From Candidatus Protochlamydia phocaeensis (lineage in GTDB: Bacteria; Chlamydiota; Chlamydiia; Chlamydiales; Parachlamydiaceae), in assembly GCF_001545115.1 (NCBI RefSeq), contig NZ_FCNU01000022.1, positions 88,544-152,543 on the forward strand: a DNA stretch of 64,000 bases. The letters run 5' to 3'. The notes below the pieces were generated by a model, which made no database searches, was not told the DNA's origin, and worked only from the letters and a program-made list of their open reading frames with translations. The translations under genes were made by a program, and so were the position numbers. Below are positions 35,739 through 39,558 of this stretch, in pieces. Numbering within the stretch: the stretch's first letter is position 1; each line of letters starts with the position of its first letter.

Positions 35739-37085
35739 TTAAGAAGGAATTAATTTTTTAAAAAGCGCATCCCAATTAGATTGATGATGTTGTATCCAAT
35801 TGATATAGCCATCGGCTTTAAAACGGCTTTGTTCGAGGCCTAAATTGCCTGTAGCTCCTTGATGAATCTTTGAAAGAATATTCGTAACCGGATCTGCTTG
35901 AGAAACGGACTCTAAGCTTTGAGCCACTTGGCGATAAGCGTCGCGGAAAGGAACGCCATTCTTAGCGAGCTGCAAGACTTGGTCTGTGGCAAATAGCTCA
36001 GGAGTAAAAGCCTTTAGGCAAGCATCCTGATCGATTTGAATGCCTTCAAAGACTTTAAGGAATACATGCAATGAGGCGAGAGTCATATCAAATCCTTGCA
36101 TGAGCGGCCGCTTGGTTTCTTGAAAATCCCGATTGTAACCGGAAGGAAGCGATCGAATGATTTCAAGCGTTTGAAATAAAAGCCCTTGAACCGTTGCCGA
36201 TTTAGCCCGGATTAGCTCTAAGGGACAGGGATTGCGCTTTTGGGGCATTAAGCTGCTTCCCGGACAGAATTTTTCGGGCAATTTCAGGTAGCCGAATTCA
36301 GGCGCGCTAAAGATAATGATATCTGTAGCCAGTTTACTTAAATCATTCATGATTTGCGCCAAGGCATGTAGGACAATCGCCTCAAATTTGCCGCGGCTGT
36401 TATTGGCGTAAAGCACATTGTTTTGCACGCATCGAAATCCAAGCAGTTCAGCGCAATACTGGCGGTCGATGGGCAGCGAGACGCCATAACTGGCCGCTGA
36501 TCCCAGTGGACTTTGATTGATCAAGTCGAACGCGCTTTTAAGGAGTTCCCCATCGTCTAGCAAAGATTCAGTAAAAGCTCCGGCCCAAAGCCCTAAAGAA
36601 GAGGGCATGGCATGTTGAAAGTGCGTCCGGCCAGGAATAGGCACAGCATGGTTTTCATCGGCAAAGCGAATCAAGACTTGGCTAAGGGACGCAAGGGCTT
36701 CCATTGTTTGCAAAATCTGATCTCTCATATACAACCGCATATCAAGCAGGACTTGATCATTTCGCGATCGGGCAGTATGGAGCTTTTTACCTAAATTCCC
36801 AAGCGATTCCACCAAATAGTTTTCGACAGCCGTATGCACATCCTCGTCTGTCTGTTTAATTGTAAATAAGCCCTTTTTAGCAAGAGAAAGAATATGGCTG
36901 AGGCCTTGAAGCAGCTGATGGCATTCCTCGGTTGTCAAAATGCCAATTTTAGCCAACATGCTGGCATGGGCCATGCTTCCAAGGCAATCATAAGGCAAAA
37001 GGGCGATATCTAAAAGGGGATCATCCCCTGTCATAAAGGCTTCGACGGCTTCATCAAGTTGATATCCCTTATCCCACAATTTCAT
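35739..37085 (-). CDS. argH: Argininosuccinate lyase.
   Basis: The fumarate-lyase signature GSSLMPQKRNP is present. Length is 448 aa. Confidence 0.85.
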   Translation of the reverse strand: MKLWDKGYQLDEAVEAFMTGDDPLLDIALLPYDCLGSMAHASMLAKIGILTTEECHQLLQGLSHILSLAKKGLFTIKQTDEDVHTAVENYLVESLGNLGKKLHTARSRNDQVLLDMRLYMRDQILQTMEALASLSQVLIRFADENHAVPIPGRTHFQHAMPSSLGLWAGAFTESLLDDGELLKSAFDLINQSPLGSAASYGVSLPIDRQYCAELLGFRCVQNNVLYANNSRGKFEAIVLHALAQIMNDLSKLATDIIIFSAPEFGYLKLPEKFCPGSSLMPQKRNPCPLELIRAKSATVQGLLFQTLEIIRSLPSGYNRDFQETKRPLMQGFDMTLASLHVFLKVFEGIQIDQDACLKAFTPELFATDQVLQLAKNGVPFRDAYRQVAQSLESVSQADPVTNILSKIHQGATGNLGLEQSRFKADGYINWIQHHQSNWDALFKKLIPS

Positions 37086-38331
37086 AGCAGCCCTCCTTTG
37101 AGAGTTTTTCTTGTCGCTTGGCTAGGATTTCGCAGGGCAGGCCTTTAATTTTTGCTGCATGGGCGCACCATCTTTGATCAAACGAAGCGCTTTTGATGGA
37201 GCGAACGTCAGGAGCAAAAAGCGAATATTTCGACTCGCGATGCAGAATTTCAATATTTCCTTTATATAGCTTAGCGCGGATTTTTCCGCCTAAGACTTGT
37301 TGGGTTTGCGCGATAAAAGCATCCAATGCTTGTTTTAAGGGAGAAAACCATAGGCCATGATAAACTAAATAAGCCCATTGCGCATCGACGATTTTTTTAA
37401 ATTGAATTTCATCCTTGGTCAAGCATTGCTGCTCTAAATCGCGATGAAGCTTTAAGATTACATGGGCGGCAGGCGCTTCGTAAACCTCCCGGCTTTTCAA
37501 GTCCATGATGCCATCTTCAAACATGTCGATCAGGCCAATGCCCTGTTGGCCGGCTAGCTGATTAAGCGAGGCAATGATGCCATCCAAAGGAAGGCTTTCC
37601 CCATTAAGCGCAATGGGGATGCCTTGAGCAAATTCAATTTCCACAGCAATTCCTTCATCGGATGCGTGAGAAATAGGCCTTTTCCACATCCAAACATGAT
37701 CAGGGATAGGTTGATTGAGATCAACGGCTCCGGAGGCAATTGAACGGCACCATAGCGTTTTATCATCTCCTCCGACAATTTGCTCGCTGATGGGAATATT
37801 CCAGTGTTTGCAAAGGATTTGCTCTTCTAAACGCGTGAGATTGAAATCGCGTACAGGGACCAAAATATCCAATTCAGGCGCGAATAATTTGAAGACATTG
37901 TGCATGCGGTATTGATCGTTGCCTTTTCCTGTCGATCCTTCTAAAATGGCGTCGCATTCCAACTCTTTGGCTTTAAGGGCAACCAGTTTGGCGACAAGCT
38001 GCCTAGTCATAGAAGTGGAGACAGGATAGCCATTATAATCGGAATTTGCCTGAATCGCTTTTGACAGCCATTGCTGAGAAAATTCTTCCTTAGCATCGAT
38101 AATAAAAGGGGTGATGCCTAGAATGGCCGCCTTGGCATGCATGTCCTGCATTTCCTCTTCGCCCTGTCCGACATCAATGGTAATGGGAATGATCTCTTTG
38201 GCTTCATAAATATGGCGCAAGAGGGCGATGGCTAAGGAAGAATCCAATCCTCCGGAAAACGCAACTGCAACTTTTTGCCCTTTCGTCACGGGCGTTTGCT
38301 TAATTTTTTCTAAAATAGGCGCTAAAAACAT
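37069..38331 (-). CDS. Argininosuccinate synthase-like protein (divergent paralog).
   Basis: AFSGGLDSS, a PP-loop ATP pyrophosphatase motif, and GSTGKGNDQYRMH are present, but it is more divergent than the neighbouring copy. Confidence 0.65.
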   Translation of the reverse strand: MFLAPILEKIKQTPVTKGQKVAVAFSGGLDSSLAIALLRHIYEAKEIIPITIDVGQGEEEMQDMHAKAAILGITPFIIDAKEEFSQQWLSKAIQANSDYNGYPVSTSMTRQLVAKLVALKAKELECDAILEGSTGKGNDQYRMHNVFKLFAPELDILVPVRDFNLTRLEEQILCKHWNIPISEQIVGGDDKTLWCRSIASGAVDLNQPIPDHVWMWKRPISHASDEGIAVEIEFAQGIPIALNGESLPLDGIIASLNQLAGQQGIGLIDMFEDGIMDLKSREVYEAPAAHVILKLHRDLEQQCLTKDEIQFKKIVDAQWAYLVYHGLWFSPLKQALDAFIAQTQQVLGGKIRAKLYKGNIEILHRESKYSLFAPDVRSIKSASFDQRWCAHAAKIKGLPCEILAKRQEKLSKEGCYEIVG

Positions 38332-38334
38332 CTG

Positions 38335-39558
38335 TCAAATTCCTTTATTTAAGCTATTATACGCTTTGAGCCGCAAGGCATTAAGTTTGATAAATCCTTT
38401 GGCGTCAGTTTGGTCGTACCCTCCCAGCTGATCCATGCTGGCAATTTTTTGGTCGTAAAGCGATTGAGGCGATTCACGCTTGAGAACAACGGCGTTGCCT
38501 TTATACAGCTTAAGATAGACTTTGCCTTCGACGCGCTCTTGGCTTTTTTCAATGGCCGCCATTAGAAATTCCATTTCAGGGCTGAACCAAAATCCGTTGT
38601 AAATGAGCTGGGCAATCTTTGGCATCCACATCTCTTTGAGAAGGAAGACTTCTCTGTCCAGCACCAATGGCTCAAGGTCAAGATGGGCTTTCCATAAGAC
38701 AGAGCCGGCGGGCGTTTCATAAACGCCTCTGGACTTCATGCCGACAAATCGATTCTCGACAATGTCGATCCGTCCAATTCCATGCTTTCCGCATAGTGCG
38801 TTCAAATAGGTAAAAATAGCGACAGCAGATTCTTTTACACACGTATCATTAGATAGATTGGTAACAGAAATAGGCACGCCTTTGGCAAATTCAATGGCAA
38901 TGACTTCTTCTTCATCCGGTGCCGATTTTAAGGATGCCGTTTGTTGGAACATGTCTTCTGGAGGTTCGATTGAAGGATCCTCTAAAACGCCTCCTTCATA
39001 GCTGGTATGCATCAGATTTTCGTCCATGCTGTACGGTTTTTGCAGCGTGGAGGTAATGGGAATGCCATGGGTTTGGGCATAGGCGATCATATCTGTCCGT
39101 CCCTTGAACTGGCTTAAAAAAGCAAGATCTTTCCAAGGGCTGATGATCTCGGCATTTGGCATTAAGGTAAGATAAGTCATTTCAAACCGGACTTGATCAT
39201 TGCCTTTGCCTGTCGCTCCGTGTGCCAGAAGCGTCGTCTGCTCCTTTTTGGCGATTTCCACTTGCTTTTTTGCGATGAGCGGGCGGGAAAGAGAAGTGCC
39301 GAGTAAGTATCTTCCCTCGTACATGGCATTAGCCTTAAGCGCCTGGAAAATATAGCCTTCGACAAATTCCTGGCGTAAATCTTCAATATAAACGCGGCTG
39401 GCTCCCAACTTAAGGGCTTTTTCTTTGGCAAGGGCAAAATCTTCTTTTTGTCCGACGTTGGCTAAAAAGCAAATGACTTCCAATCCTTGCTCTAATAACC
39501 ATTTTAAAATGATGGAGGTATCCAATCCTCCGCTGTAAGCTAAAATAACTTTTTTCAT
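38335..39558 (-). CDS. argG: Argininosuccinate synthase, type 1.
   Basis: AYSGGLDTS and [13 protein letters not shown] are present. I place the start at the internal Met ([11 protein letters not shown]), which is preceded by a GAGGAA SD sequence. The longer ORF to 39669 would overlap the upstream ATPase gene. Confidence 0.85.

Follow-up and report, generated by a model that had tools for sequence, protein, structure and literature searches.

The last two steps of arginine synthesis are deemed settled, and databases call every ArgG-family gene "argininosuccinate synthase". Type-1 ArgG/ASS1 (EC 6.3.4.5; TIGR00032, HAMAP MF_00005) is known from the structures of the human (2nz2), T. thermophilus (1j1z), T. 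maritima (1vl2), M. thermoresistibile (4u7j) and L. pneumophila (6xnq) enzymes. The type-2 ArgG of E. coli (1k92, PRK05370) belongs to the same family and has the same chemistry. Nitrile synthetase ArtA (9leh/9lei), with the family model NF038212, uses the ArgG fold on another substrate and is a precedent for neofunctionalisation in the family. In purine synthesis a single fumarate lyase, PurB, acts after two aspartate-adding ligases, PurC and PurA. The locus described here lies in a 64-kb stretch of contig NZ_FCNU01000022.1 of the amoeba-associated chlamydia Candidatus Protochlamydia phocaeensis (64,000 nucleotides, referred to as the window) and carries two adjacent ArgG-family genes, argG1 and argG2, ahead of one argininosuccinate lyase gene, argH. 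While argG1 is a canonical type-1 enzyme, argG2, which databases annotate as argininosuccinate synthase, appears from its sequence to be a distinct ArgG lineage with a remodelled pocket. With roughly even confidence we take argG2 to be a catalytically active second argininosuccinate-forming ligase with a rewired pocket.

The two genes, which a preliminary description of the window had reported as a tandem pair, are arranged head to tail on the minus strand (Table 1), and both contain the Pfam domains Arginosuc_synth and Arginosuc_syn_C. The motifs quoted in that description were found in both, AYSGGLDTS and GATGKGNDQ in argG1 and AFSGGLDSS and GSTGKGNDQ in argG2. Each translation matches an NCBI protein of Candidatus Protochlamydia phocaeensis from end to end with 100% identity. 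Neither the open reading frames (ORFs) nor the match to the NCBI proteins showed a frameshift or premature stop in argG1 or argG2. This rules out a pseudogene, a reading that the description had kept as an escape clause.

The argG1 protein scored 555 bits on NF001770 (cutoff 334) and 488 bits on TIGR00032, and reached 560 bits against the solved ArgG of T. maritima (1vl2) and 511 bits against the human enzyme (2nz2). All of the functional positions checked (34/34) agreed with the solved ArgGs, and argG1 showed every sequence feature of argininosuccinate synthase that was tested on argG2. The scores of argG2 were lower. It reached 336 bits on TIGR00032 (cutoff 268), passed NF001770 narrowly with 346 bits (cutoff 334) and remained under the cutoff of NF010392 with 383 bits (cutoff 512); the domain scores were 143 bits for PF00764 and 205 bits for PF20979. 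Its closest solved structures were the bona fide ArgGs of Mycobacterium and Legionella with about 250 bits. The downstream copy is indeed the more divergent one, with 336 against 488 bits on TIGR00032 and a best PDB match of 251 against 560 bits.

The two proteins are 33% identical to each other. Neighbour-joining on 48 sequences (200 bootstrap replicates) placed argG1 with the ArgGs of T. maritima and human (99.5% bootstrap) and recovered the argG2 clade with 100% bootstrap on a long stem. The mean tree distance from the argG2 clade to six solved ArgGs was 1.45, compared with 0.86 among those six, which range from human to bacteria. Each of the two proteins has relatives with at least 60% identity in other phyla. 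The pair brings together two lineages, paralogous or xenologous, that have long been associated, and did not arise by local duplication, because the same two lineages co-occur, adjacent or in one operon, in distant organisms. The placement of both copies thus indicated no recent duplication and, from the uniform GC content of the locus, no recent acquisition either.

A search of 5.8 billion proteins yielded hundreds of full-length argG2 relatives with 62-86% identity, from Parachlamydiales, Verrucomicrobiota, Planctomycetota/Brocadiia, Armatimonadota, Bacillota and metagenome-assembled genomes (MAGs) labelled Woesearchaeota. The clade peptides GNDQYRMH and NVFK[LM]FAP matched at least 346 of 185,579 species genomes of bacteria and archaea (GTDB r232), including Thermodesulfobacteriota/Syntrophaceae, Dependentiae, Poribacteria, Anaerolineales, Altiarchaeota and a euryarchaeal single-cell genome. 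The isolation of the clade was tested by an exhaustive HMMER search of 1.84 billion representatives clustered at 50% identity. Only two full-length representatives fell within the clade (60% and 55% identity); outside it the identity was 41% for one protein, P0127, and at most 39% for all others. Within the clade argG2 is 62-80% identical across phyla, compared with 30-40% to its nearest relatives outside and 25-35% to the solved enzymes in Foldseek alignments. An N-terminal extension of about 18 residues is mostly conserved within the clade. Judged by these sequence comparisons, argG2 is under strong purifying selection. Some taxon labels in this set look unreliable: the "Woesearchaeota" contigs L002, L016 and L023 carry a Glyco_transf_9 gene (lipopolysaccharide heptosyltransferase type) beside the arg operon, and the cassette of the "uncultured proteobacterium" L005 is 76-79% identical to the chlamydial one. 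In two MAGs, MFD00709.bin.2.91 (L049 and L061) and MFD05942.bin.3.282 (L075 and L077), two argG2 loci were assigned to one MAG each, which reflects either argG2 paralogues in Syntrophaceae-like bacteria or mixed bins.

P0127 (L084, 4697-5929) and P0132 (L085, 966-2210) are sisters of the argG2 clade with 100% bootstrap. Both genes are preceded by an O-methyltransferase gene, and P0127 is also surrounded by radical-SAM/SPASM, B12-radical-SAM and FGE-sulfatase genes and a weak ATP-grasp-like ORF. No lyase gene was seen at the P0127 or the P0132 locus. The P0127 locus probably encodes the synthesis of a natural product with the help of an ArgG-like ligase.

For the active site, argG1 and argG2 proteins were aligned with six solved type-1 ArgGs and the type-2 ArgG of E. 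coli, and human ASS1 numbering is used for the positions compared; the eight studied ArgGs that served for comparison are the six PDB type-1 enzymes, the E. coli type-2 enzyme and argG1. Invariance of the clade signature was read in two alignments, A1 and A2. Residue roles follow a deep mutational scan of ASS1 published in 2026 and the structural studies that it summarises (PMC13289927). The clade keeps the P-loop (with T17S), Y87, S92, R95, G117, T/S119, K121, N123, D124, R127 and R157, and also D182, S189, E270, K277, R279 and Y282. This leaves most of the ATP contacts and the complete set of aspartate contacts (T119, N123 and D124, plus R157) in place, and among the seven citrulline contacts checked (Y87, N123, R127, S189, E191, E270, Y282) only E191 is lost. 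The suggestion that the divergent copy ligates a different amino acid to citrulline is argued against by the retained aspartate-binding residues. The more general suggestion of an altered substrate or role gained some support from the loss of S180, E191 and R272.

Every clade member has Gly at position 180, where Ser stands in all argG1s as well as in the E. coli and the six PDB ArgGs. E191 is replaced by Ala clade-wide (Val in one representative). At R272 of the xE[ND]R motif, where every studied ArgG has Arg, the clade has Gly (Gln in one sequence). In human ASS E191 contacts citrulline and S180 contacts ATP (PMC13289927). The first two replacements fall into the signature GGDDKTLWCRSIASGA, which stands in place of the canonical [YF]SxDxNxxxx[ST]xE[GA]G, and the third into FEDGIMDLKSRE. 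New charged residues in the clade are D181, R375 and K378. The latter two belong to an RSIK loop that replaces [VA][ST][MFY][DEN] at positions 375-378, with R for V/A and K for D/E/N; R377, S378 and I379 in the numbering of argG2 itself are invariant in the clade. The corresponding loop of human ASS reaches the mouth of the pocket of the adjacent subunit and complements pocket mutants in trans (PMC13289927). The net charge of the pocket becomes more positive through E191A, R375 and K378, partly offset by R272G and D181. An AlphaFold2 model of argG2 was discarded for pocket inspection since the substrate loops were too low in confidence: the overall pLDDT was 70.8, and loops 97-105, 134-139, 184-197, 275-280 and 377-397 were below 50. 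Foldseek searches with this low-confidence model returned ArgG for all top matches at a TM-score of only 0.41-0.45.

The argH protein scored 350 bits on TIGR00838 (cutoff 279.5) and had no ASL_C2 Pfam match. It keeps the catalytic residues H162, S283, K289 and E296 (duck delta2-crystallin numbering), while Q167M, D293C, K325R, D330T and an N-terminal WDKGY for WGGRF are atypical. The lyases that neighbour argG2 elsewhere form two sub-lineages, one of about 450 residues like that of the window and one of about 500 residues in Syntrophaceae. All of them scored low on TIGR00838 (304-385 bits) and share Q167M/V, D293C/S, K325R and D330T, with H162, S283, K289 and E296 kept. Three chlamydia-like contigs (L086-L088) carry argG1 followed directly by the same lyase lineage, with no argG2; their lyases are 60-71% identical to the argH of the window, and one of the contigs has the same ATP-binding cassette (ABC) importer. 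The lineage must cleave argininosuccinate and is a real argininosuccinate lyase, because it is paired with argG1 alone on these contigs and is the only ArgH listed for the closed genome of strain ORM2a. The same two facts rule out a lyase specific to argG2.

The neighbourhoods of argG2 were inspected at 83 loci from genomes and sequence look-ups (L001-L083) and 80 metagenome loci, each with 10 kb on either side. A lyase gene was near argG2, mostly adjacent, at about 58 of the 83 genome loci and 32 of the 80 metagenome loci. Unsupervised clustering of the neighbours at all 163 loci gave no conserved partner except the ArgH-family lyase; one recurring "family" proved to be an artefact of antisense ORFs. 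The order argG1-argG2-argH together with an ABC importer was found in Parachlamydiales (L004, L005, L006, L008, L009), in a Dependentiae MAG (L032) and in two other MAGs (L013, L043). Across these cassette lineages the three arg genes show comparable divergence and the same grouping, with 62-69% identity for argG2 compared with 54-67% for argG1. A gene for the repressor ArgR lies inside the cassette in L005 (12590-13069), L013 (12580-13038) and L032 (6957-7427); no ArgR gene was found within the 64-kb window. Two ankyrin-repeat proteins are encoded directly beside the Dependentiae cassette (L032, 13433-16002, minus strand), which fits a host-associated lifestyle.

Near argG2, argG1 was present at 14 of the loci L001-L083 and at none of the 80 metagenome loci; among the 43 chlamydia-like argG2 contigs with a length of at least 8 kb, 30 or more also carry it. 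The lyase occurs in nature together with argG1, with argG2 or with both. Standard arginine settings of argG2 were found as well. L035 and L090 have a 9.7-kb cluster of ornithine carbamoyltransferase (OTC; 382 bits, cutoff 306), carB, carA, lyase and argG2 genes, and in L058 argG2 lies between pyrBI and carA. The operon of L002, L016 and L023 reads argG2-argJ-argB-argD-argC-argG1 and has no argF; its terminal argG1-type gene product is 67% identical to the argG1 of the window.

The closed genome of ORM2a (CP113000.1), a free-living, benzene-fermenting member of the Thermodesulfobacteriota, is listed in supplement 2 of PMC13101534 with two K01940 genes. By exact sequence look-up one of them, OS130_03095, is WAC08197.1, the argG2 orthologue at L073. 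In that source it adjoins the only ArgH given for ORM2a, while OS130_06600 adjoins argD and argB and lies about 700 locus tags away; the proteome data there give 12 spectra for OS130_03095 and 2 for OS130_06600. The ORM2a table lists ArgJ, ArgB, ArgC, ArgD, CarAB, PyrB, two ArgGs and one ArgH, and marks module M00844 as "1 block missing". The KEGG Orthology (KO) entry for OTC is absent from the rows of this table that were covered, a truncated copy, and PyrB is the sole carbamoyltransferase among them; the table is a KO assignment, and no direct search was made. The missing OTC is a lead and not a demonstration.

The best reading of the window locus is a six-gene arginine-acquisition (salvage) operon of substrate-binding protein (SBP), permease, ATPase, argG1, argG2 and argH. 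The importer would bring in a basic amino acid, most simply citrulline, from which argG1 and argH, with aspartate and ATP, would form arginine and fumarate. For argG2 we infer catalytic activity, substrates and a reason for keeping both copies as follows. The enzyme would activate a ureido oxygen by adenylation, join it to aspartate and pass an argininosuccinate-type product to the shared lyase. That this product would be argininosuccinate or a very close analogue is the simplest conclusion from the ability of the lyase to handle argininosuccinate, the conservation of the chemistry-defining residues and the arginine and ArgR contexts. Further points in favour are the scores above two ArgG profile cutoffs, the strong purifying selection, the ArgH-family lyase as sole recurrent neighbour and the 12 spectra of the ORM2a orthologue. 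The citrulline/ATP pocket would be built differently, with S180, E191 and R272 gone and D181, R375 and K378 gained, the last two on the loop of the neighbouring subunit. D181, with R375' and K378' of the partner subunit, may take the place of the lost groups, so that the same reaction would run in a rewired pocket. Different kinetics, regulation or inhibitor sensitivity would explain the retention of both enzymes in some genomes. The argG2 lineage is old, very strongly conserved and patchily spread over bacteria and archaea, usually beside this ArgH lineage.

Several observations weigh against a second argininosuccinate-forming enzyme. The three residues lost from the clade are kept in all eight studied ArgGs (8/8), and in human ASS S180N/I and E191Q had little or no activity and R272C was null (PMC13289927). 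The sisters P0127 and P0132, which adjoin O-methyltransferase genes with no lyase seen, share S180G and the loss of E191. A second ArgG coexists with argG2 in the closed ORM2a genome, in one arg operon and in the cassettes of four lineages, including that of a Dependentiae MAG, and plain redundancy does not easily explain this coexistence. Dependentiae are a candidate phylum with typically small genomes. Literature searches found nothing on the argG2 clade, its signature or the cassette, nor any account of tandem argG genes in Chlamydiae; argG_1 and argG_2 of Ca. Methanoperedens are mentioned only in passing.

The main alternative, less likely than the favoured reading, is that argG2 is an active ArgG-type ligase for a ureido or carbamate substrate other than free L-citrulline, with the shared lyase cleaving the product. 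Candidate substrates are N-acylated citrulline, N-carbamoyl-aspartate with ornithine, and N-delta-carboxyornithine. The two ligases would then be two entry points to one lyase step, which would explain why both are retained. The changes at E191, S180 and R272 lie in the pocket and leave the remaining ATP contacts and every aspartate contact intact. A pocket with added positive charge would suit a more anionic substrate; binding of another substrate in such a pocket may fit the pattern as well as the favoured reading does, sequence alone not being decisive. Coexistence with a second ArgG in ORM2a, the L002 operon and four cassette lineages speaks for this alternative, as do the ORM2a table with its arg genes and no OTC KO entry, the L002/L016/L023 operon without argF, the Q167M/V, D293C/S and D330T shared by the neighbouring lyases, and the specialised-metabolism contexts of P0127 and P0132. 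However, the L035/L090 cluster with a bona fide OTC, carBA and the lyase is a standard citrulline route. The lyase lineage also serves argG1 alone (L086-L088), and its odd residues are not tied to argG2. The absence of OTC from the ORM2a table comes from KO assignment and not from a direct search, and no accessory enzyme such as a deacylase is conserved beside argG2.

A more far-reaching possibility, which we regard as rather unlikely, is that the argG2 clade represents an unrecognised third class of function among ArgG-family ligases, working with ATP and the aspartate skeleton on a substrate other than free citrulline. Such an enzyme might join ornithine to N-carbamoyl-aspartate or, with two rounds of the shared lyase to follow, CO2-carbamylated ornithine to aspartate. 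Both routes would lead to arginine without ornithine carbamoyltransferase. This would explain the ORM2a table without OTC, the operon without argF and the position of both ArgGs before one lyase in host-associated Parachlamydiales and Dependentiae. The idea of an OTC bypass was prompted by the seemingly argF-less ORM2a and by the L002 operon, but is weakened by the OTC-carBA-lyase-argG2 cluster of L035/L090. A link to the recently described arginine synthetase ArcE was ruled out, as ArcE is unrelated to ArgG (PMC11032458).

Still less probable is that argG2 has little or no activity of its own and forms mixed tetramers with argG1, which it would modulate through the loop at the neighbouring site. 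The human loop 375-378 does enter the adjacent active site (PMC13289927), and the RSIK of argG2 at this place is invariant and differently charged. The 3-nt spacing makes co-translation of argG1 and argG2 probable, and their order is kept in four lineages. However, most argG2 loci have no argG1 nearby, the two ORM2a genes are given as about 700 locus tags apart, and relatives use argG1 and argH without argG2. The full catalytic core, which a non-catalytic subunit would not need, is conserved; together with the 62-80% identity across phyla it also makes the purely regulatory role once proposed for the divergent copy unlikely.

A recent tandem duplication, as first proposed, with one copy drifting under relaxed selection or towards pseudogenisation, can practically be dismissed: although the two neighbours share a strand and a family and are similar in length, their identity of 33% and the phylogeny refute it, argG1 and argG2 grouping together in none of the 200 bootstrap trees (0/200) and each having much closer relatives elsewhere, while the conservation of argG2 orthologues across phyla (62-80%) contradicts relaxed selection and the intact ORFs, identical to database proteins, contradict incipient pseudogenisation.

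Table 1. Genes of the arginine locus and sequence motifs of argG2, in window coordinates
Feature	Position	Strand	Description	Basis
SBP	40938-41768	-	periplasmic substrate-binding protein; ABC importer for polar/basic amino acids; heads the operon	Pfam SBP_bac_3
ABC importer permease	40279-40959	-		Pfam BPD_transp_1
ABC importer ATPase	39566-40291	-		Pfam ABC_tran
argG1	38335-39558	-	canonical type-1 argininosuccinate synthase, 407 aa	profile scores, alignment, tree
argG2	37069-38331	-	ArgG-family member of an isolated, uncharacterised clade, 420 aa	
argG2 PP-loop AFSGGLDSS	38236-38262	-	residues 24-32; S12, G14 and D16 kept, T17 to S clade-wide	
argG2 GSTGKGNDQ	37912-37938	-	residues 132-140; aspartate/ureido/ATP contacts G117, T119, K121, N123 and D124 kept	
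argG2 signature GGDDKTLWCRSIASGA	37726-37773	-	residues 187-202; S180G, new D181, E191A	
argG2 FEDGIMDLKSRE	37486-37521	-	residues 271-282; E270, K277 and R279 kept, R272 to G	
argG2 RSIK loop	37192-37203	-	residues 377-380, aligned with human loop 375-378	
argH	35739-37085	-	argininosuccinate lyase, divergent lineage, 448 aa	TIGR00838

The six genes are closely packed on the minus strand between 35739 and 41768, in a layout as in an operon. The best NCBIfam match of the SBP was the lysine/arginine/ornithine-binding subfamily TIGR01096 with 115 bits, under its cutoff. Its TTG start is a mechanical call, and the real start may be downstream. The permease is 70-76% identical to its counterparts in related Parachlamydiales cassettes, and orthologues of the SBP, permease and ATPase genes stand beside argG1 in L004, L006, L008, L009 and L088. 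Between the stop of the ATPase gene and the ATG of argG1 there are 7 nt. The argG1 start at 39558 has GAGGA 5 nt ahead of the ATG, and a longer ORF reaching 39669 was rejected as a mechanical artefact. A 3-nt spacer separates the argG1 stop from the argG2 start; the argH start overlaps the end of argG2 by 17 nt, and AGGAGG precedes the argH ATG.

The GC contents of argG1, argG2 and argH (0.449, 0.451 and 0.456) and their GC at third codon positions match the window. A recent horizontal insertion of argG2 is not indicated, there being no compositional signal and the phylogenies of argG1, argG2 and argH across the cassettes looking congruent. Scans of positions 35000-42600 gave promoter-like sites no higher than the shuffled background and terminator-like sites above it, yet neither marked the operon boundaries.

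The operon is flanked by two genes for small predicted membrane proteins with no Pfam match, of 82 aa (35328-35576) and 169 aa (42219-42728), both on the minus strand. Just downstream of it, a set on the minus strand at 32486-35052 resembles an ABC-2-type exporter from the gene layout, its domains being unchecked: an ABC ATPase gene (34069-35052) is followed by genes for membrane proteins of about 263 aa (33281-34072 and 32486-33280). On the other side, 43232-46075 (minus strand) encodes an SNF2-family helicase (SNF2-rel_dom and Helicase_C), which carries at its N-terminus a Pro/Ser-rich stretch of some 330 aa with a unit of roughly 33 aa repeated in tandem about three times (…SPFGS.PVPF.P.LPQN…); such an extension is unusual for a bacterial SNF2 protein. 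Back to back with it, a gene on the plus strand (46479-50969) encodes a 1496-aa protein with an Upf1-like superfamily 1 helicase core (AAA_11/AAA_12) and a C-terminal REase_MTES_1575/DUF559 nuclease domain, and may belong to a defence or repair module.

As an isozyme, argG2 would show that a citrulline/ATP pocket can be put together in another way, in part with residues of the adjacent subunit, which bears on the interpretation of ASS1 disease variants. With another substrate, it would open a new route into arginine, and metabolic reconstructions would be wrong at this step for amoeba symbionts, syntrophs, Planctomycetota and seemingly OTC-less pathways. The cassette itself is a mobile, ArgR-linked arginine-salvage module common to Parachlamydiales, a Dependentiae MAG and two further MAG lineages.

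Among the known systems, type-1 ArgG is the closest. While argG1 is a plain member, argG2 has the same two-domain architecture, PP-loop, GxTGKGNDQ motif and pairing with a lyase and scores above the cutoffs of TIGR00032 and, narrowly, NF001770 though below that of NF010392, but differs in S180G, E191A, R272G, D181, the RSIK loop and the N-terminal extension of about 18 residues. The type-2 enzyme of E. coli also keeps S180, E191 and R272; argG2 was rejected as a type-2 ArgG with 98 bits on PRK05370 (cutoff 657) and a length of 420 compared with 447 aa. Neither is argG2 an ArtA or an NF038212 argG_rel protein, with 103 bits to 9leh and 196 bits on NF038212 (cutoff 425), and unlike these it is paired with ArgH. 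In having two aspartate-dependent ligases, argG1 and argG2, ahead of a single lyase gene the locus resembles the PurB system, but PurC and PurA are unrelated to each other and have known, different substrates, whereas argG1 and argG2 both belong to the ArgG family.

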